From a virus (Duplodnaviria; Heunggongvirae; Uroviricota; Caudoviricetes), in the IMG/VR virus record IMGVR_UViG_2897328257_000001: 23,636 nt of DNA. One strand, written 5' to 3'. Below, piece by piece: positions 2,059 through 9,162 of this stretch. The notes beneath the pieces are model-generated. The model did not search any database. It was not told the DNA's origin and saw only the letters and a list, made by a program, of their open reading frames with translations. Made by a program: the position numbers and the translations under genes. Position 1 is the stretch's first letter; each line of letters opens with the position of its first letter.

Positions 2059-2585
2059 TTGCGTAACTCCGATAAATCGTTAAAACGTTCCATAAACATC
2101 CCGTAGGCATGACCCGGTGCCAGTGGAATCACGTTGAACATCTCTGTTGCCGGGATGCCTTCCAGTACAGGCCAGAAAGAGCCATCATCAAGCCCGAGAT
2201 CGCGGCGTTCGGTTGCCAGCATGATGAGATCGGCATATTTCACGGGTGTACTCATAACTGGGGGTAACCCGTATTTCTCACGGATTACGGCGTCTATTTT
2301 TTCTTCCATCCGTTTATAGTCAGGAAGAAGGCGTTTCAGTGGTGCGGGAATGTCCTGGCAATACGCTTCTGTTGCATCATGCATTAACGCTTCAAAAGCA
2401 AATTCCTGCGGCACCAGCTGGCTGCAAAGAACCGCATGTTGGGCGACGCTGTAGAAGTGCGAAAGATGACCGGCAAAGCGACAGATATTTGAAAGGGAAA
2501 CCGCGATATCGTTAATATCGATGTCGTCTTTATTTATCTTGTCATAATAAAAATGCTTCCCGGAAAAAGTTTTAATAAATGACAT
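2049..2585 (-). CDS. yfdR: HD-domain phosphohydrolase (YfdR-like), 178 aa
   Basis: HD motif region (LSHFYSVAQHAV ... ALMHDATEAY ... DLIMLATERRDLG) typical of YfbR/YfdR-type HD hydrolases; ATG at 2585 preceded by GGAG 6 nt upstream (the ORF-track start at 2612 is a GTG without SD). Confidence 0.8.
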   Translation of the reverse strand: MSFIKTFSGKHFYYDKINKDDIDINDIAVSLSNICRFAGHLSHFYSVAQHAVLCSQLVPQEFAFEALMHDATEAYCQDIPAPLKRLLPDYKRMEEKIDAVIREKYGLPPVMSTPVKYADLIMLATERRDLGLDDGSFWPVLEGIPATEMFNVIPLAPGHAYGMFMERFNDLSELRKCA

Positions 2586-2678
2586 TTTGTTCTCCACGTA
2601 TATGCACTGCACCGCGCTGAATTCTGGTAAAAGGAAGCCCTCACCATCCGGTGATTATTGAGTTAATTACGTTTCCAT

Positions 2679-2700
2679 AAATGCCCCCGCAGGGGCATTT
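2679..2700 (-). other. Perfect 9-bp inverted repeat hairpin (AAATGCCCC-cgca-GGGGCATTT) in the yfdQ-like/yfdR-like intergenic region
   Basis: Seen directly in sequence; no long U-tract follows on either strand, so more likely an mRNA processing or stability element or weak attenuator than a strong terminator. Confidence 0.4.
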
Positions 2701-2712
2701 GCAGTAATGAAA

Positions 2713-3537
2713 TCAGGCGGTGAAAGTACCAATAAAGGTTTCTACTTTGCTGTCTTTGAATTTCTCAACAAGCAGATCACGAAATTCGTTAGCCATTTCT
2801 TCCTGCACCGCTTCCAGCTGAATAATGCGCAGAACCAGTACAGGACGATCGCCAGTGATAATGCTGAGGCGTAATTTAAACGGACGTTCTTTCAGACCTT
2901 CAAACGGAACGCATTTAAATTCAAATGCCACTGGCATAATGTCTTTGGTCTTCGCTTCGACAGACTCCATCAGGGAGCGTTTGCCGCTGAAGTCATTATC
3001 TTCAAAATCAGCGGTCTGGTTTGCTTCAATCGTGATTTTACGGACTGCCGCAGCCGCTTTTGTTGCTTGAATGGCGTCACCATTAGCATCAAAGCCCACA
3101 AGGTAGTCGGCCCAGTCTTCGATCCATTCTGCCAGTGACTTCTGGGAGTTACGCTCGCCGTTAACAGACAACAGAGCAGAGAACGGTGCTGTCTTTTTCA
3201 GTTTGAGAGTGGCAGTGTTATCTGCGTGACCTGGCTCATCAATAGTACCCAGGTTAAGCACACTGACGGCACGCATATTATCGGCATCGATAAAGCAGCG
3301 GGTGCCTTCATCTGCAAGATCTTTAGAATAACGGGTAAAATCATCGATGCTGGCAGTGGAAAGTGCACCACGGAAACGGAAGCGATTTAAATTAAATTTT
3401 TCCAGATCATGAATGCGGAAATTCTCAGGCAATGCCACAGCATCGGCATCAATCTTACTGATAATTTCATTAACACCCTGAGCAGAAATAAGGGCATGGA
3501 TTTGATTAATTGCGGTTGCGTCTAAGTTCTGAGACAT
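2713..3537 (-). CDS. yfdQ: YfdQ-like protein (DUF2303 family), 274 aa
   Basis: 274-aa ORF with ATG at 3537 preceded by GAGGA; size and sequence character match YfdQ-family prophage proteins (recollection); lies between the YfdP-like and HD-domain genes as in CPS-53. Confidence 0.7.
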
Positions 3538-3602
3538 AATAAGTCCTCACTATATAAAGATATTCAGTGATGAGATAAATAATCAGTTTATTACGAACGA
3601 TA

Positions 3603-3965
3603 TTAACGACCTGCTGCGCGGAGTTTTCCGTCAGGTTCACCGGCAAGAGTCAGTAATTGTCCCTGGTCTTCCTGCAGAATAGTCAGGCGACCACCGCGAT
3701 TGACATACATCGGCGTTTCGGTGGTGTCTTCTTCGGAAATTTTCCCGCGGTTAGTTGGGCGAACATATGAGAGTTTGTGTTTGATTTTCACACGGTTCTC
3801 ATCAAACGGTTCGATTTCCAGATTGAGTGAGACCTTCCCTTTGGTTTTCGTGTTCATCACACCGGAAGCGACCTCACTGAGAACTGCGCCGATTTTGGTT
3901 TCAAATACGCCGCCGTCCAGCTCCCCGATAAATGCCTGCACATCAGTACTGCGTTCGCTAGCCAT
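3603..3965 (-). CDS. Hypothetical early protein, 120 aa (YfdP-like); start at ATG 3965 (MASERSTDVQ...)
   Basis: AGGAG 7 nt upstream of ATG at 3965; the longer ORF-track N-terminal extension is Cys/Arg/Pro-rich and runs into the GC-rich non-coding region, so is unlikely to be translated. Confidence 0.65.
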   Translation of the reverse strand: MASERSTDVQAFIGELDGGVFETKIGAVLSEVASGVMNTKTKGKVSLNLEIEPFDENRVKIKHKLSYVRPTNRGKISEEDTTETPMYVNRGGRLTILQEDQGQLLTLAGEPDGKLRAAGR

Positions 3966-4014
3966 TTTGCTGCTCCTCATCATATCGACCCTGCAAGGTC
4001 GGTTGGTTTCTCCA

Positions 4015-4101
4015 CAAAACAGAGAAGAACACCTGCGGTGGCAGCCGCCCGGATGGATTGGGTTATGAGCCCGTCGTCCGGTGATGCTCTTCTCTGTTTT
4101 G
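4015..4101. other. Long-range perfect 14-bp inverted repeat (CAAAACAGAGAAGA at 4015-4028 / TCTTCTCTGTTTTG at 4088-4101) enclosing a 59-nt GC-rich segment with nested small hairpins; candidate structured RNA element
   Basis: Seen directly; a 14-bp perfect IR with a 59-nt spacer is very unlikely by chance in 23 kb. Confidence 0.5.
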
Positions 4102-4111
4102 CAAAAAAGGA

Positions 4112-4220
4112 CGGTACCAGCCGGAAGCAAGGGTACAAACTGGTACCGCCAGGACTACACACAGCATAAACTTGTGGTGCCGGGTGCCTCCCGGTGCCTG
4201 GCGAAGGTTGCACACCAGGC
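4112..4220 (+). ncRNA. Candidate structured non-coding RNA region: tandem GC-rich hairpins (CGGTACCAG 4112-4120 / CTGGTACCG 4140-4148; CCGGG-tgcct-CCCGG 4180-4194; GCCTGG 4196-4201 / CCAGGC 4215-4220)
   Basis: Several perfect stems within about 110 nt in a region with no credible ORF; flanking G-T pairs extend the 4180-4194 stem only on the plus strand (G-U in RNA), weakly favouring plus-strand function; no family assignment possible without searches. Confidence 0.35.
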
Positions 4221-4376
4221 GGGTGGGTATCCACAGAAGGTCGACTGTCAGCCTCAACCTTAACCCGCGTGCGCTGAGCCGCATTCACCACAACGCTAAG
4301 GATTCTCTCTGGTTGAAAATACTTAGCTGTTATGTGCCTGCTTTTAGCCACATCAGGCGAGGTGGACCTGGTTATT

Positions 4377-4421
4377 CCCCAACAACAAGGATTCGGTTAA
4401 TCTGGATATCCCCAACAACAA
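4377..4421 (+). repeat. Direct repeat of 12-mer CCCCAACAACAA (4377-4388 and 4410-4421), each preceded by GGTTA, in the leader of the plus-strand ORF
   Basis: Seen directly; CA-rich repeats immediately upstream of the putative start codon. Confidence 0.5.
4399..4417. repeat. Left copy of about 19-bp imperfect inverted repeat (AATCTGGATATCC-c-CAACA) flanking the 4436-4951 ORF
   Basis: 13-bp perfect core AATCTGGATATCC at 4399-4411 is the reverse complement of 4967-4979; flanks also match in inverted orientation (18 of 19). Confidence 0.6.
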
Positions 4422-4435
4422 TAAGAGTATTCAAT

Positions 4436-4951
4436 GTGATCGCTGAATTAACGGCAGCAATGACGGCTATTCGTGAAACAGCCCAGATTGCAAAACTAAT
4501 GAACGAGGCAAAAACTCAAGCTGAAGTAAATGCGGCTATTGGTGAGCTGAACTCAAAGCTTGCGTCTATTCAGCGCGAATGCGTGTCTCTCGTTGAACTG
4601 GTGGGCTCTTATCAAGAAATAAATGCTTCTCTCAAAGCTAAAATTGCAGAATTCGAAAACTTTGAGGCTCAGACGGAAGGCTATATCCTTAACCAACTTG
4701 AGTCGGGTACTTTTGTATACTCGAAGGAGGTAATCGTGAACGGTGGCAGCATAACCATGCATCTTTGCCCAAAATGTTTTGGACAAAAGATAGTATCGAT
4801 ACTTCAACCATTCCCGGTTAGCGAAGATGAGCTTTTTCATAAAAGCAGGTGCCTCCACTGTGAAAATAAGTTTCTGATGAATAAAAATCCGGATTACGTA
4901 TCGCCTCCATCCATTGAGGAGTTGTCCAGAAAACTTAACGGCAATCTGTAG
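4436..4951 (+). CDS. Hypothetical protein, about 171 aa: N-terminal coiled-coil-like helical region plus C-terminal CxxC...CxxC zinc-ribbon-like motif (CPKC ... CLHC); candidate moron, function unknown
   Basis: Longest ORF in an AT-rich segment; putative GTG start at 4436 with AAGAG 8 nt upstream (alternative ATG at 4460); intrinsic terminator 40 nt after stop; oriented opposite to the PL operon; flanked by inverted repeats. Confidence 0.6.
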   Translation: MIAELTAAMTAIRETAQIAKLMNEAKTQAEVNAAIGELNSKLASIQRECVSLVELVGSYQEINASLKAKIAEFENFEAQTEGYILNQLESGTFVYSKEVIVNGGSITMHLCPKCFGQKIVSILQPFPVSEDELFHKSRCLHCENKFLMNKNPDYVSPPSIEELSRKLNGNL

Positions 4952-4960
4952 ATTACTACT

Positions 4961-4979
4961 GTTGTGGATATCCAGATTG
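4961..4979. repeat. Right copy of the about 19-bp inverted repeat (core GGATATCCAGATT at 4967-4979)
   Basis: Reverse complement of 4399-4411 core; contains 10-bp palindrome TGGATATCCA. Confidence 0.6.
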
Positions 4980-4988
4980 TTAAAGAGC
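4976..4988 (-). promoter_or_regulatory. rrn-type boxA-like element on the PL transcript (minus-strand GCTCTTTAACAAT); candidate nutL-type NusB/NusE site
   Basis: 13 of 13 match to the core of the E. coli rrn boxA (TGCTCTTTAACAATTTATCA, from memory), about 105 nt downstream of the predicted PL start, where nutL sits in lambdoid phages. Confidence 0.45.
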
Positions 4989-4990
4989 TA

Positions 4991-5014
4991 AGCGTCCTGT
5001 AGGGCGCTTTTTTG
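4991..5014 (+). terminator. Rho-independent terminator for the plus-strand ORF (AGCGTCC-tgta-GGGCGCT followed by TTTTTT)
   Basis: 7-bp stem (one G-U) plus six T; the stem is weaker on the minus-strand RNA (A-C mismatch) and no U-tract follows in that direction, so it is unidirectional. Confidence 0.7.
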
Positions 5015-5081
5015 TTGCTAACGAATCATCCTGGACTTCATATGCCCCAGGCGGCTACTTCGTGGGCGTCCTGCCTGTTTG

Positions 5082-5120
5082 TTGTTTCTCTTGGGTACAT
5101 TATGTATCTCATAGGTACAT
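5082..5120. promoter_or_regulatory. OL-like operator region: 19-mer ATGTATCTCATAGGTACAT (5102-5120) plus degenerate copy TTGTTTCTCTTGGGTACAT (5082-5100)
   Basis: Shares the GTAC-containing symmetric 19-mer pattern with the OR sites (TTGTACC-N5-GGTACAA; ATGTAC-N7-GTACAT); overlaps the PL -10 and spacer. Confidence 0.5.
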
Positions 5121-5126
5121 TGTCAA
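5099..5126 (-). promoter_or_regulatory. PL-like early leftward promoter: -35 TTGACA (5126-5121), 16-bp spacer, -10 CATAAT (5104-5099)
   Basis: Near-consensus sigma70 hexamers on the minus strand, immediately downstream of the repressor-gene terminator and overlapped by operator-like 19-mers. Confidence 0.65.
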
Positions 5127-5130
5127 GTAT

Positions 5131-5153
5131 AAAAAAACCTGCCGAAGCAGGTT
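5131..5153 (-). terminator. Rho-independent terminator of the repressor transcript (minus-strand RNA AACCUGC-UUCG-GCAGGUU + UUUUUUU)
   Basis: Perfect 7-bp stem, UUCG tetraloop, 7-U tract, 13 nt after the cI-like stop codon. Confidence 0.85.
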
Positions 5154-5165
5154 CATAAACATTGA

Positions 5166-5840
5166 TTAGGCTTTGATTTTGTATCTTCTTGGTTTTCCTG
5201 AGAAAATCACAGTTCCAATTATAGAGCAATTACCGTTGATCTTAATGTAAGGCTCAGGCCAGTTTGGGTTTAACGCTTTGAGATAACGCTGTGTCCCATC
5301 TTCTATCAACCTTTTGAAGGTGGTTTCACCTGTATCGTGCATCAATGCAATAACGTCGTCACCGTGGCAGGCAGGTACTTCAGGATCGACAAAAATCATG
5401 TCTCCCGGGCGGTACTCATCAATCATTGAATCACCTATCACCCGCAAGATATAAGTCATTTCCCCACAGGGTACAGGGCAGGGATACGTTTCTGCTGTGC
5501 TCAAATCAACCTCAGAATATCCAACTTCTTTCCATGCTCCGGCCTGTACCCATGATATGACAGGGACTAATGTGATTTGTTTATTAGTGATTGAAACATC
5601 AGGTTTTTTTGTGATGTTCGTTGTCTGGTGTTCTTGATCGAGCCATCCGACAGGCAGGTCGAAACATTTTTCGATGTGTCGTGCCATGCTGTCACCGATA
5701 TTTTTAGTAGCACCATCTCCCATAAACCTGCTGGTCTGGGTTGGCTCGCGATCAATCATAGTGGCAAAGGAAGAATTCCCTCCAACACCATCTCTCAGTT
5801 TTCTGGCGTTAGACCGCCGGATGTCATGGATTGTTTTCAT
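5166..5840 (-). CDS. CI-like prophage repressor with C-terminal LexA/S24 peptidase (autocleavage) domain, 224 aa
   Basis: C-terminal VIGDSM ... GDMIFVD ... TFKRL (Ser/Lys dyad) typical of S24 repressors; divergent from a cro-like gene across an operator region; no SD before the ATG (possible leaderless PRM transcript as in lambda). Confidence 0.85.
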   Translation of the reverse strand: MKTIHDIRRSNARKLRDGVGGNSSFATMIDREPTQTSRFMGDGATKNIGDSMARHIEKCFDLPVGWLDQEHQTTNITKKPDVSITNKQITLVPVISWVQAGAWKEVGYSEVDLSTAETYPCPVPCGEMTYILRVIGDSMIDEYRPGDMIFVDPEVPACHGDDVIALMHDTGETTFKRLIEDGTQRYLKALNPNWPEPYIKINGNCSIIGTVIFSGKPRRYKIKA

Positions 5841-5856
5841 AACGAAATTAAAACCC

Positions 5857-5925
5857 TTGTACCGTTAAGGTACAAGTATCTTGAAGGTTCATTTCAATCA
5901 TGTAATATGTACACCGGAGGTACAT
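5857..5925. promoter_or_regulatory. OR-like operator/promoter region: operator 19-mers TTGTACCGTTAAGGTACAA (5857-5875) and ATGTACACCGGAGGTACAT (5907-5925); PR candidate -35 TTGAAG (5881-5886), 16-bp spacer, -10 TAATAT (5903-5908); PRM candidate on minus strand with -10 TTTAAT ending 6 nt before the cI ATG
   Basis: Perfect and near-perfect palindromic 19-mers sharing GTAC half-sites, positioned between divergent repressor and cro-like genes; GGAGG SD 10 nt before the cro-like ATG. Confidence 0.6.
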
Positions 5926-5930
5926 ATTGT

Positions 5931-6131
5931 ATGAAAGCGTATTGGGACTCTTTAACCAAAGAACAGCAGGGCGAGTTGGCCGGAAAAGTTGGCTCAACTC
6001 CTGGCTACTTACGGCTGGTTTTCAATGGCTATAAAAAAGCCAGTTTTGTGCTGGCTAAAAAACTTGAGCAATGCACGTCAGGTGCAATTACGAAATCTGA
6101 CTTAAGACCGGATATCTATCCGAAAGATTAG
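5931..6131 (+). CDS. Cro-like small HTH regulator (YdaS/Cro family), 66 aa
   Basis: First gene of the rightward operon, with strong SD; C-terminal ...GAITKSDLRPDIYPKD resembles the YdaS-type Cro signature (KVTRHDLRPD, from memory). Confidence 0.7.
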   Translation: MKAYWDSLTKEQQGELAGKVGSTPGYLRLVFNGYKKASFVLAKKLEQCTSGAITKSDLRPDIYPKD

Positions 6132-6162
6132 CAGAACACTTTCAATTTTTAACCACAGAACG

Positions 6163-6732
6163 ATGAGGCTAATCGTGGGTAAGCATCACTGGAAAATAGA
6201 AAAACAGCCTGAGTGGTACGTGAAAGCTGTCAGAAAAACTATCGCGGCGTTGCCGGGTGGTTACGCTGAAGCGGCTGACTGGCTCGATGTAACAGAAAAC
6301 GCTTTATTCAACCGCCTTCGTGCAGATGGCGATCAGATTTTCCCGCTGGGATGGGCAATGGTTTTACAGCGTGCTGGTGGCACTCACTTCATTGCTGATG
6401 CTGTGGCGCAGTCTGCAAATGGCGTCTTTGTGTCGCTTCCTGACGTCGAGGATGTGGACAACGCCGATATTAACCAGCGTCTGCTGGAAGTCATTGAACA
6501 GATCGGCAGTTATTCAAAACAGATTCGTTCAGCAATCGAAGACGGTGTAGTGGAACCGCATGAGAAGACAGCAATTAACGACGAGCTGTATCTCTCAATT
6601 TCGAAGCTGCAGGAGCATGCAGCACTGGTCTACAAAATCTTTTGCATTTCAGAAAGTAATGACGCCCGCGAGTGTGCAGCTCCGGGCGTCGTGGCGTCGA
6701 TTGCTTCTGGTTGTGGAGAAACTAACGCATGA
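6163..6732 (+). CDS. Hypothetical early regulatory protein, 189 aa, in the cII position (possibly YdaT-like)
   Basis: ORF immediately downstream of the cro-like gene; stop overlaps next start (ATGA); function inferred from position only. Confidence 0.55.
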
Positions 6733-7067
6733 ACAGTTTAACAACACACTACCGTCGCTCGCAACTGATTGCGCTTCCTGTACCGGGTGGAAAAGCGAAG
6801 GTGGAATATTGCTATGCAGTGAATGTACCAGGTGACAGGGAAATTGTAACCCACAGCTTTGCAGAGTGGGCTGTGGGGGATTTCAACCGGCAGAAGGAGA
6901 CAGTCCTTTGCGACAAGTTAACCGCTGGTTCAAAGATCACTACGGAGTGCCCGTCAGAGTCATTCGTTGGGAACCGGAAACACAACGGGTTATCTACCTC
7001 CGCGAAGGCTATGAGCATGAGTGCTTCAGTCCGCTCGAACAGTTTCGTCGTAAATTCAGGGAAATAG
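6729..7067 (+). CDS. Small hypothetical protein; reading frame may shift near 6890-6900 into the overlapping frame ending at 7087 (the alternative ORF is 6866-7087)
   Basis: Two overlapping ORFs: frame-1 N-terminal part and frame-2 C-terminal part look protein-like, while the frame-1 C-terminal part is Ser-rich low-complexity; frame-2 stop overlaps the start of the replication gene. Confidence 0.35.
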
Positions 7068-7076
7068 AGGTCGGTC

Positions 7077-8018
7077 ATGAGCACTAAATTAACCGGCTAT
7101 GTATGGGATGGTTGCGCAGCGTCAGGCATGAAATTATCCAGCGTGGCAATTATGGCCCGCCTGGCTGATTTCAGTAATGACGAAGGTGTGTGCTGGCCAT
7201 CGATTGAAACCATTGCCCGCCAGATTGGCGCGGGGATGAGTACCGTCAGAACGGCTATCGCACGGCTGGAAGCAGAAGGCTGGTTAACGCGTAAGGCGCG
7301 TCGCCAGGGTAACCGCAATGCGTCGAATGTTTATCAGCTTAACGTTGCGAAGCTTCAGGCAGCGGCATTTTCTCAACTGTCAGATTCTGACCCGTCAAAA
7401 TCTGACGCATCAAAATCTGACCCGTCAAAATTTGATGCGTCGAAATCTGGCAAAAAAGCGGGTTTTCACCCGTCAGAATCTGGCGGGGATCCGTCAGTAA
7501 AATCAAAACATGATCCGTCAGATAAAAAACCTTCTCGTCCGGACTCTTCGCAACCGGACACGCAGACGGCTGAACAGGATTTTTTAACTCGCCATCCTGA
7601 TGCGGTTGTATTCAGCCCTAAAAAGCGCCAGTGGGGGACGCAGGATGATTTGACCTGCGCACAGTGGCTCTGGAAAAAAATCATCGCCCTGTACGAGCAT
7701 GCCGCCGAATGTGACGGCGAGGTGGTTCGTCCCAAAGAACCGAACTGGACAGCCTGGGCAAACGAAATTCGCCTGATGTGTGTGCAGGATGGTCGTACTC
7801 ATAAACAAATCTGCGAGATGTACAGCCGCGTCAGTCGCGATCCGTTCTGGTGCCGTAACGTGCTCAGCCCGTCGAAGCTGCGGGAAAAATGGGATGAGCT
7901 TTCCCTGCGCTTATCGCCGTCCGTCAGCACGTACACCGAAAAACGCGAAGACCCGTACTTCAAAGCCAGTTACGACAACGTGGACTACAGCCAGATCCCG
8001 GCAGGATTCAGGGGGTGA
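7077..8018 (+). CDS. Replication initiator protein (O-like: N-terminal HTH/winged-helix DNA-binding domain, repeat-encoded linker, C-terminal domain), 313 aa
   Basis: N-terminal ...WPSIETIARQIGAGMSTVRTAIARLEAEGWL... is HTH-like; the gene contains tandem 15-bp DNA repeats (iteron-like) as lambda O contains ori; sits in the replication-module position. Confidence 0.7.
   Translation: MSTKLTGYVWDGCAASGMKLSSVAIMARLADFSNDEGVCWPSIETIARQIGAGMSTVRTAIARLEAEGWLTRKARRQGNRNASNVYQLNVAKLQAAAFSQLSDSDPSKSDASKSDPSKFDASKSGKKAGFHPSESGGDPSVKSKHDPSDKKPSRPDSSQPDTQTAEQDFLTRHPDAVVFSPKKRQWGTQDDLTCAQWLWKKIIALYEHAAECDGEVVRPKEPNWTAWANEIRLMCVQDGRTHKQICEMYSRVSRDPFWCRNVLSPSKLREKWDELSLRLSPSVSTYTEKREDPYFKASYDNVDYSQIPAGFRG
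7392..7451. repeat. Four tandem 15-bp iteron-like repeats (CCGTCAAAATCTGAC consensus) inside the replication initiator gene, with three further dispersed CCGTCAG copies to 7521; candidate replication origin
   Basis: Seen directly: 7392-7406, 7407-7421, 7422-7436, 7437-7451; analogous to lambda ori iterons embedded in gene O. Confidence 0.6.
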
Positions 8019-8020
8019 TC

Positions 8021-8509
8021 ATGAGTCTTTTGAATGACGTTCAGAAATTCATTGAAGCCCATCCGGGGTGTACTTCCGGAGACATTGCGGATGCTTTTGC
8101 AGGTTACTCACGGCAGCGCGTTCTGCAGTCAGCAAGCAAGTTACGTCAGAGCGGGCGTGTGGCTCACCGTTGTGAAGGAGATACACGCAGACATTTCCCG
8201 CGCCTGACTGAGAGAGCGCAGGAACCGGAACCACAACCAGTTCGAGAAACCAGACCTGTGCGCAATTTCTATGTCGGCACTAACGATCCACGGGTGATTT
8301 TGTGCCTGACCCGCCAGGCGGAAGAACTGGAGTCCAGGGGCTTATACCGTCGTGCTGCAACGGTGTGGATGGCGGCATTCCGTGAAAGCCACTCCCAGCA
8401 AGAGCGAAACAATTTTCTTGCGCGTCGTGAGCGGTGTTTACGGAAAAGCAGCAAGCGCGCTGCATCGGGTGAAGAGTGGTATCTGTCAGGGAATTACGTG
8501 GGGGCTTAA
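8021..8509 (+). CDS. Hypothetical protein, 162 aa, with wHTH-like N-terminal segment (possibly YfdN-like)
   Basis: ATG at 8021 preceded by AGGGGG; translationally coupled to the downstream methyltransferase (TAATG overlap). Confidence 0.6.
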   Translation: MSLLNDVQKFIEAHPGCTSGDIADAFAGYSRQRVLQSASKLRQSGRVAHRCEGDTRRHFPRLTERAQEPEPQPVRETRPVRNFYVGTNDPRVILCLTRQAEELESRGLYRRAATVWMAAFRESHSQQERNNFLARRERCLRKSSKRAASGEEWYLSGNYVGA

Positions 8510-9162
8510 TGAGTAATAAATATTGCCAGGCGCTGGTGGAACTGCGGAACAAACCAGCCCATGAACTGAAGGAAGTGGGCGATCAGTGGCGCACGCCGGA
8601 CAACATTTTCTGGGGAATTAACACCCTGTTTGGCCCGTTTGTTCTGGATCTGTTCACTGACGGTGATAACGCCAAATGTGCCGCGTATTACACGGCGGAA
8701 GACAACGCGCTGGCGCATGACTGGTCAGAACGTCTTGCGGAGCTTAAAGGTGCTGCCTTTGGTAATCCCCCATACAGCCGCGCCAGTCAGCATGAGGGGC
8801 AATACATCACCGGCATGCGTTACATCATGAAGCATGCCAGTGCCATGCGTGATAAAGGCGGGCGCTATGTTTTCCTGATTAAAGCTGCCACCAGCGAAGT
8901 GTGGTGGCCGGAAGATGCAGATCATATTGCTTTTATTCGCGGGCGTATTGGTTTTGAACTGCCTGTCTGGTTTATCCCGAAAGACGAGAAGCAGGTACCG
9001 ACAGGCGCTTTCTTCGCTGGTGCTATTGCTGTTTTCGACAAGACCTGGAAGGGACCGGCAATCAGCTACATCGGGCGCGATGAACTTGAGGCATGTGGTG
9101 AGGCCTTTCTGGCGCAGGTTCGCCAGCAGGCGGAAAAACTGGTCAGGGAGATGGCGGCATGA
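8509..9162 (+). CDS. Phage Dam-family N6-adenine DNA methyltransferase, 217 aa
   Basis: Catalytic NPPY motif (FGNPPYS) and overall resemblance to phage orphan N6-adenine methyltransferases; a new ORF begins at 9159 (MTTLTQCQQ...) and is cut by the assembly gap. Confidence 0.85.
   Translation: MSNKYCQALVELRNKPAHELKEVGDQWRTPDNIFWGINTLFGPFVLDLFTDGDNAKCAAYYTAEDNALAHDWSERLAELKGAAFGNPPYSRASQHEGQYITGMRYIMKHASAMRDKGGRYVFLIKAATSEVWWPEDADHIAFIRGRIGFELPVWFIPKDEKQVPTGAFFAGAIAVFDKTWKGPAISYIGRDELEACGEAFLAQVRQQAEKLVREMAA

Follow-up and report, generated by a model that had tools for sequence, protein, structure and literature searches.

A chassis of complementary arms, boxA and exchangeable cargo beside the repressor gene of temperate enterobacterial phages

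A pair of inverted repeats around a single gene in a temperate phage may act in DNA, as recombination sites or operators, or in RNA, as the two strands of a helix. Which of these applies is the question raised by a 23,636-nucleotide (nt) stretch of caudoviricete DNA (IMG/VR record IMGVR_UViG_2897328257_000001), here called the window and always meant at its full length, in which such a repeat encloses a plus-strand open reading frame (ORF) at 4436-4951, the cargo gene. The window matches Escherichia phage PhiR29_1, a lambdoid phage of the SfV/e14 type. Comparison with related loci identifies the repeat as the arm pair of a conserved cassette chassis of temperate enterobacterial phages, located just downstream of the repressor gene and of the leftward promoter PL. 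In this chassis the two arms co-vary, and the right arm is joined to a minus-strand boxA of the type found in ribosomal RNA (rRNA) operons (rrn).

Anatomy and conservation of the cassette

The left arm, AATCTGGATATCCCCAACA, occupies 4399-4417 and its partner, TGTTGTGGATATCCAGATT, occupies 4960-4978; the arms match in 18 of 19 positions overall, with a perfect core of 13 base pairs (bp) at 4399-4411 and 4966-4978. A sequence-only reading of the same DNA had reported a repeat of about 19 bp around the ORF, and the repeat is indeed there, with the perfect 13-bp core, the 18 of 19 matches and the left coordinates that it gave; its right arm, placed at 4961-4979, was one base off. The ORF runs from a GTG at 4436 to a TAG at 4949-4951 and is flanked as described, at distances that measure 18 nt from left arm to start and 8 nt from stop to the 19-nt right arm, not 19 and 10 nt. 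The palindrome that the reading saw in each arm, TGGATATCCA (10 bp), is complete in the right arm only, the left one having TGGATATCCc (9 of 10). Complementarity reaches 26 nt (4399-4424 with 4953-4978), in which 22 of 26 positions match.

Taken alone, the repeat is not statistically significant. Exact 13-mer inverted pairs spaced 300-900 nt apart have an expectation of 0.28 per window of equal composition, and at least one occurs in 19% of random windows. The repeat is accepted as real because of the comparison, in which the arms are common to nearly all cassettes that share the leader and vary together.

IMG/VR was scanned with a 17-mer from the right flank and, as an independent query, with the leader. 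Some more loci came from a few enterobacterial genomes by a contig scan whose 16-mer was too short; most of its matches were due to chance, and only 5 enterobacterial loci could be used. This provided 63 distinct cassettes with a common leader, mostly from IMG/VR contigs, 58 of which have complementary arms beside boxA and a terminator. In these 58 the order is leader, left arm, Shine-Dalgarno sequence and ORF, right arm, (G/T)TTAAAGAGC, and the terminator AAGCGTCC-loop-GGGCGCTTTTTT. By similarity the cargo genes form 7 groups, of which at least 6 are unrelated to each other, and without exception they are encoded on the plus strand. A repressor-sized minus-strand ORF stands to the right of the cassette in nearly all loci with enough right flank, and the left flank consists chiefly of minus-strand genes in most loci. 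A synthetic junction query of 152 nt, the first 72 nt of which are leader, matched in part in 1,104 of 5,426 complete E. coli genomes. Among the papers searched, none describes the chassis or phage PhiR29.

The C/A-rich leader (4368-4421 in the window) carries two direct copies of CTGGWTAT(T)CCCCAACAACAA, in which CCCCAACAACAA is the C/A-rich, G-poor motif. On the plus strand this motif could serve as an unstructured ribosome-loading leader, as an Hfq (ARN)n site or as a Rho loading site.

The arms were compared in 48 well-anchored, distinct pairs. Since a match at 9 or more of the 13 core positions had been the condition for keeping a pair, the match rate at arm positions 1-13 (37-48 of the 48 pairs) is partly by construction; positions 14-19 match partly, and beyond about position 20 matching is at chance level. 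Duplexes with the own partner have a free energy of -25.3 kcal/mol, versus -22.4 +/- 0.4 kcal/mol with the arms of other cassettes (200 permutations). Paired cells amount to 84.9%, versus 81.0 +/- 0.6% in shuffles, and pairs changed on both sides number 13, versus 7.0 +/- 1.4; none of 500 shuffles reaches either value, and slid registers are 26-50% paired. Three arm versions occur, GGATATCC, GGATGACT and GTAACCCTC (in the arms, AATCTGGATATCC, AATCTGGATGACT and ..GTAACCCTC..), and in every one the two sides have changed in concert. Further inward the AATCTGGATGACT version differs as well yet remains complementary, up to 24 nt in locus L098, and isolated double changes are found at arm positions 6, 7, 8 and 11.

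The five cassettes without a right arm are also informative. All five lack boxA, and their left core is down to 6-9 of 13 bases while the adjoining leader is intact. Of the 58 partnered cassettes, 50 have lost no more than one of the 13 core bases, while in the remaining 8 the altered left core still fits its own, equally altered partner; the association of left-core decay with partner loss gives a Fisher value of 1.8e-4, uncorrected for relatedness. Complementarity, as in a long-range ribonuclease III (RNase III) stem, is thus kept across relatives according to controls that are not phylogeny-aware and in a data set with no G.U signature. Selection appears to have kept the arms complementary for pairing within a single strand, RNA being the most likely one.

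The right arm runs into boxA on the minus strand, a perfect match to the consensus (Table 1; rrn sequence from PMC2724277). It is conserved with 0-2 changes among the cassettes and is absent at this locus in SfV, e14, SfII and mEp460, relatives that do not have the chassis. Together with the outer bases of the arm it forms the 17-mer GCTCTTTAACAATCTGG (4972-4988, minus strand), which is identical in the early leader of T7 (PMC11863960). The 17-mer also occurs in about 27 other phage groups, with no repeat and with unrelated sequence after it, and the outer 7 nt of the right arm therefore appear constrained as an extension of boxA, which suggests that AAUCUGG is a functional part of it. Loci L028, L036, L053 and L085 are among those with the recurring 17-mer. 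At its non-chassis sites there is no ATATCC beyond the 7 nt, so that what is left of the right arm belongs to the chassis alone. To the boxA extension itself, the left arm is complementary.

Seen on the PL transcript, the order is therefore hairpin, boxA, 5' arm (starting at the last two bases of boxA), about 530 nt of antisense cargo, and 3' arm. The antisense strand of the cargo holds no convincing minus-strand gene, so that boxA stands downstream of a PL promoter with 11 of 12 consensus matches and ahead of a long untranslated stretch, across which polymerase would have to read. In the predicted minimum free energy (MFE) fold of the 793-nt minus-strand PL transcript the flanking sequences form a duplex of 25 pairs with one mismatch, thus above about 20 bp, with 23.4 pairs expected in the ensemble and a duplex energy of -29.8 kcal/mol.

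The terminator behind the cargo gene (hairpin 4990-5009 and T run) is conserved and strand-asymmetric. Among 37 distinct terminators the mean free energy is -11.3 on the plus strand versus -7.2 on the minus strand, the plus-strand hairpin being more stable in 36 of 37, and a conserved G.U pair weakens the minus-strand one. It follows that the terminator serves the cargo mRNA and is weaker against leftward transcription.

By sequence comparison, the cargo protein of the window, a member of phrog_1244, is a homologue of Rip1 ("ring interacting pore 1"). The single sequence matches Rip1 in PDB entry 9oox (9oox_L) with an E value of 2.7e-7 (residues 14-150 against 28-159), and a profile of the 13-member family matches it with 6.1e-20 over nearly the whole chain (6-151 against 16-160 of 164); the four cysteines are invariant in the family. 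Rip1 is described as a prophage-encoded single-protein defence whose pore forms on sensing portal or small-terminase rings (review PMC13434031). Besides the Rip1 family, the cassettes carry at least five families without assigned function, for which PADLOC, Pfam and PDB gave nothing beyond a sub-threshold match to LprI. The second commonest cargo (L018, L019, L042, L066, L287, L293) is a predicted membrane protein of about 150-170 amino acids that starts 118-201 nt after the left arm, a gap that leaves room for a small upstream ORF or RNA. As for expression, the hexamer NNTAAT at 4396-4401 is the sole candidate -10 element for the cargo gene, and no -35 element is evident. It overlaps the start of the left arm and is present in all cassettes, as TATAAT or GATAAT in some (L018, L057, L095).

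The site itself is, by its sequence context, a variable accessory-gene site. Between the same flanks, relatives hold other cargo, namely orf33 in SfV, ymfI/ymfJ in e14, SfII_36, SfIV_36 and that of mEp460, as expected of a moron replaced between conserved backbone genes. In an O157:H7 Rac-like prophage the same gene, again between both arms (the part corresponding to window 4328-4988), sits in another backbone, so that the same repeat-bounded cassette recurs in a new context. Conversely, L098 shares the backbone of the window, with 98% identity over 4970-9000 including cI and 97% over 2066-4407, and carries GATGACT arms and a different cargo. The exchanged segment is exactly window 4408-4969, and the breakpoints therefore fall inside the arms. 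The suggestion of the sequence-only reading that the repeats bound a cassette thus holds in the sense that the arms are the boundaries of an exchangeable unit.

What the arms might do

The reading that we favour, to which we give slightly less than even credence, is that the leftward PL transcript has the cargo antisense bracketed by boxA and a long-range helix. Host Nus factors would be recruited by boxA, so that Rho does not stop the leftward transcript within the untranslated insert. A helix of about 19-25 bp would form on this minus-strand RNA once the 3' arm emerges, like that of the rrn leader around 16S rRNA, and would close off the cargo. Its product may be a double-stranded site of the RNase III type or an end-protected antisense segment, with the boxA extension buried. 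Antisense transcription upon prophage induction would then help to turn off the phage's own Rip1-like defence gene.

Several observations weigh against this reading. BoxA follows, and does not precede, the reverse-oriented terminator hairpin. A match to the STnc100 family lies in the early-left region just downstream, and that read-through from PL plays a role is therefore assumed. No sigma-70 promoter with at least 9 of 12 matches was found for the cargo in a consensus scan of the plus strand, and IMG/VR pattern scans found no empty-hairpin ancestor. The shuffle controls ignore relatedness, and many of the cassettes are of recent common ancestry. Regarding the lack of a G.U signature, transversions exceed transitions at arm positions 8-21 (149 versus 104), and the excess of G.U pairs on the minus over the plus strand (82 versus 22) follows from the C/A-rich left arm. 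Assignment of the strand by G.U pairs was accordingly dropped; since transitions are not enriched, sequence does not settle which strand forms the helix. Furthermore, the plus-strand cargo mRNA (689 nt) is also predicted to form it, with 19 pairs in the MFE fold, 18.5 expected and a duplex energy of -26.1 kcal/mol.

This plus-strand fold underlies the main alternative, which we consider unlikely, namely that the 5' leader of the cargo mRNA pairs with its 3' untranslated region ahead of the terminator, protecting the ends or tuning translation as in hok. The arms hug the ORF, the left one ending at the Shine-Dalgarno sequence and the extended right one (from 4953) starting 1 nt past the stop; a terminator tuned for the plus strand implies that a plus-strand transcript exists; and the co-variation fits pairing on either strand. 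However, when the right arm is read as its reverse complement, most one-sided changes are C-to-T or A-to-G, and these are A.C mismatches on the plus strand, three of them consecutive in L086, and the plus-strand duplex is weaker than the minus-strand one in 39 of 48 cassettes, a difference that largely reflects the C/A-rich left arm. An mRNA started from NNTAAT, the only conserved -10-like hexamer, would begin inside the left arm and drop its outer half. The fusion of the right arm to a perfect minus-strand boxA, and the joint loss of both, are left unexplained by a helix in the cargo mRNA. It is improbable, in our estimate, that the arms have no function at all and were inherited from one ancestral cassette, persisting within flanks that are used for homologous cargo exchange. 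Conservation of the whole chassis (leader, boxA, terminator) to a similar degree would fit such a relic, as would the absence of a preference for transitions, and controls uncorrected for relatedness leave it room. A relic would not be expected to show three differing arm sequences that all stay complementary, own partners that outdo cross partners, or a left core decayed in 5 of the 5 cassettes that lost the right arm, next to an intact leader.

The sequence-only reading had offered two functions in DNA, and neither fares well. That the arms are recombination sites, whether terminal repeats of a non-autonomous transposon or sites of an invertase, seems to us very improbable, even though cargo units end exactly at the arms and are swapped, with breakpoints inside them, between phages otherwise 97-98% identical, the same unit is found in SfV-like and Rac-like prophages, and GTT adjoins both arms in the window. 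Inversion is disfavoured by the absence of an inverted junction from all 5,426 complete E. coli genomes (0 found with the synthetic query, part of which 1,104 genomes match) and by the plus-strand orientation of the cargo in all cassettes. Transposition is disfavoured by the constant position of the unit beside the repressor gene, by three IMG/VR pattern scans, in which neither an empty site, the check that the reading itself had proposed, nor an arm-only hairpin was found, and by the base before TT at the left flank, which varies (G, T, A, C), so that target duplication is not consistent. Moreover, even phages without the repeat have the 7 outermost nt of the right arm fixed as boxA extension, and 70-100 nt of flanking homology suffices for ordinary homologous exchange. 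Hardly any likelihood is left for the arms as a pair of operators at which a dimeric regulator, be it CI, Cro or the cargo protein, would loop out or repress the gene. The core palindrome and the overlap of the left arm with the sole conserved -10-like hexamer speak for operators, but the GATGACT and GTAACCCTC versions of the arms are not palindromic, and the left and right operators (OL and OR) are built on GTAC half-sites (GGTACA/TGTACC), which the arms do not resemble. L098 has different arms on the same backbone with a 98% identical immunity region, and since the cargo families are unrelated, no common cargo-encoded regulator could be responsible.

Surroundings of the cassette

In the window, cI (5166-5840, minus strand) is followed by its terminator, and the early-left genes (yfdP, yfdQ and others through int) lie on the minus strand to the left of the cassette. 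The cargo ORF is thereby placed between PL and the early-left genes, on the opposite strand and with its own terminator, and the PL-type promoter would transcribe through boxA and the antisense strand of the cassette. As to a dedicated invertase, only an ordinary phage integrase, encoded at 1-1164, was noted in the left part of the window; no search aimed at invertases was made in the remainder. The coordinates of the main features are collected in Table 1.

Table 1. Features of the cassette and its flanks in the window
Feature	Position	Strand	Remarks
Hairpin-type element GCCTGCTTTTAGCCACATCAGGCGAGGTGG	4340-4370		Left border; unique in the window; in the backbone regardless of cargo
Leader copy 1, CTGGTTATTCCCCAACAACAA	4368-4388	plus	C/A-rich; repeats the inner left arm in direct orientation; kept in all cassettes fetched with the leader
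Left arm of inverted repeat	4399-4424		13-bp core 4399-4411; overlaps leader copy 2 (4402-4421); ends at Shine-Dalgarno AAGAG (4423-4427)
Cargo gene, 171-amino-acid Rip1-family protein (by comparison)	4436-4951	plus	N-terminal helical part; C-terminal CxxC...CxxC zinc ribbon
Right arm of inverted repeat	4953-4978		Core 4966-4978; outer 7 nt are the AATCTGG extension of minus-strand boxA
boxA GCTCTTTAACAA	4977-4988	minus	Matches rrn boxA consensus GCUCUUUAACAA (12 nt); only perfect copy in the window
Intrinsic terminator of cargo	4990-5015	plus	AAGCGTCC-TGTA-GGGCGCTT and T run; hairpin 4990-5009
Leader of leftward early transcript	5023-5083	minus	Conserved; common to SfV, e14, ST64B and others
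PL-type promoter	5099-5126	minus	TTGACA, 16 nt, CATAAT, 11 of 12; overlapped by GGTACAT operator repeats

The 60-nt leader just 3' of PL is kept across phages with differing immunity regions and hosts, including Citrobacter, Klebsiella and Pantoea phages, and could be an RNA element with a regulatory role in the early-left transcript. In L130 (3140-3290; E. coli C3728), an extra G+C-rich segment of about 150 nt, absent from the window, lies between the cassette terminator and this leader. Probable CI/Cro operators on GGTACA/TGTACC half-sites are found at 5085-5126 and 5858-5934. They comprise two sites that overlap PL at OL, the 20-bp palindrome CTTGTACCGTTAAGGTACAAG, and an inverted pair of 15 nt at OR.

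At the left border, the hairpin-type element was defined from an alignment of 9 loci and from the upstream sequences of about 40 cassettes. It occurs in SfV-, e14- and Rac-like backbones as GCCTG..CCAC.TCAGGC..GGTGG, in two versions, A..GA or T..TC. The possibility that it forms the boxB of a split nutL, with boxA on the right, was rejected: there is no N-like ORF and no nutR-type boxA, and relatives that lack boxA carry the hairpin as well. Its minus-strand CTGATG/CATAAC could be a weak promoter for the adjoining stretch at 4101-4316 (minus strand), which matches the prophage small RNA (sRNA) family STnc100 (RF02076) over its full length at E 2.6e-6; the 39 bits fall short of the gathering score, which is 47. 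This stretch borders directly on the cassette on its downstream (leftward) side, and the ORFs called there look non-coding. STnc100 has been related to the PasD sRNAs of pathogenic E. coli prophages (2026 preprint). A search of Rfam found this sub-gathering match as the only one, with no known RNA family over the arms or the leader.

Related systems and implications

The closest known arrangement is the rrn leader, with its boxB hairpin, boxA, boxC and RNase III stem. The cassette has the same order on the transcribed strand, a hairpin, boxA and then the 5' strand of the helix, with the 3' strand past a long untranslated RNA. In rRNA operons the RNase III stem of 16S rRNA has its 5' strand brought to the complementary 3' strand by boxA, which is tethered to the polymerase (PMC8632103), and boxA also shields CRISPR arrays, which are untranslated, from Rho (PMC7665894). 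Whereas the rrn stem encloses about 1.5 kb of rRNA, the cassette encloses about 0.5 kb of the antisense of a protein gene within a phage early operon, and Nus binding and RNase III cleavage are putative here.

Two phage leaders are also similar. The early leader of T7 shares the 17-mer, and a processing hairpin follows it. Known as the R0.3 RNase III site, this hairpin is a local one that begins about 25 nt downstream, with AAUCUGG outside its stem in the predicted fold, whereas the partner strand in the cassette is about 550 nt away; the parallel with T7 is therefore limited to the 17-mer and the order of elements. Lambdoid nutL likewise has boxA shortly downstream of PL on the early-left transcript. 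Unlike nutL, which combines boxA with boxB and depends on N, the cassette has a boxA with no boxB hairpin after it, no evident N-like gene or ORF, and no second boxA on the PR side within the window; its boxA fits the rrn consensus and not the degenerate CGCUCUUA of lambda.

Morons, in the sense of Juhala and Hendrix, are additional genes that bring their own signals and stand among the backbone genes of a phage, and the neighbourhood of prophage repressors is known as a hotspot of defence genes such as rexAB, sieB and bstA. The cassette resembles both in holding variable, defence-type cargo with its own terminator between conserved backbone genes. What sets it apart is the single standard chassis that serves many unrelated cargos, with its co-varying arms and minus-strand boxA; no sigma-70 promoter was recognised. 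In Staphylococcus aureus prophages, the noncontiguous tha/ith operons use antisense nesting to balance immunity against autoimmunity, with antisense transcription on induction (PMC11087260). As in the cassette, a defence-related gene is there involved in antisense nesting within a life-cycle-controlled prophage operon; the organism and the genes are different, the nested gene there is the inhibitor and not the one for defence, and the description mentions neither boxA nor a flanking helix. The hok mRNA has a 5'-3' fold-back (fbi), a long-range pairing around a short ORF that is kept by co-variation. This likeness applies only if the helix forms on the plus strand, and the cargo families are not hok-like, nor is a Sok-type antisense RNA evident.

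The favoured reading, with boxA and the helix acting on the leftward transcript, can be carried further, to a proposal that we regard as speculative and rather doubtful: the chassis may be a portable antisense insulator, into which any defence gene can be inserted against the early-left operon. BoxA would carry polymerase across the insert, the helix would excise or seal the antisense RNA, and antisense transcription upon induction would silence the gene and so avoid self-killing. If this were true, a device of the rRNA operons would have been reused in a mobile gene-cassette system of about one fifth of sequenced E. coli genomes, adding to rRNA operons and CRISPR arrays a third natural setting in which rrn-type boxA is used, and a protein gene would be enclosed by a long-range RNA helix under selection, of which there are few cases. 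It would also explain how an essential early operon can take up unrelated defence genes and suffer no polar damage, and by what means temperate phages shut those genes off when they go lytic. In addition, leader, arms, boxA and terminator together make a simple sequence signature for mining new anti-phage genes.

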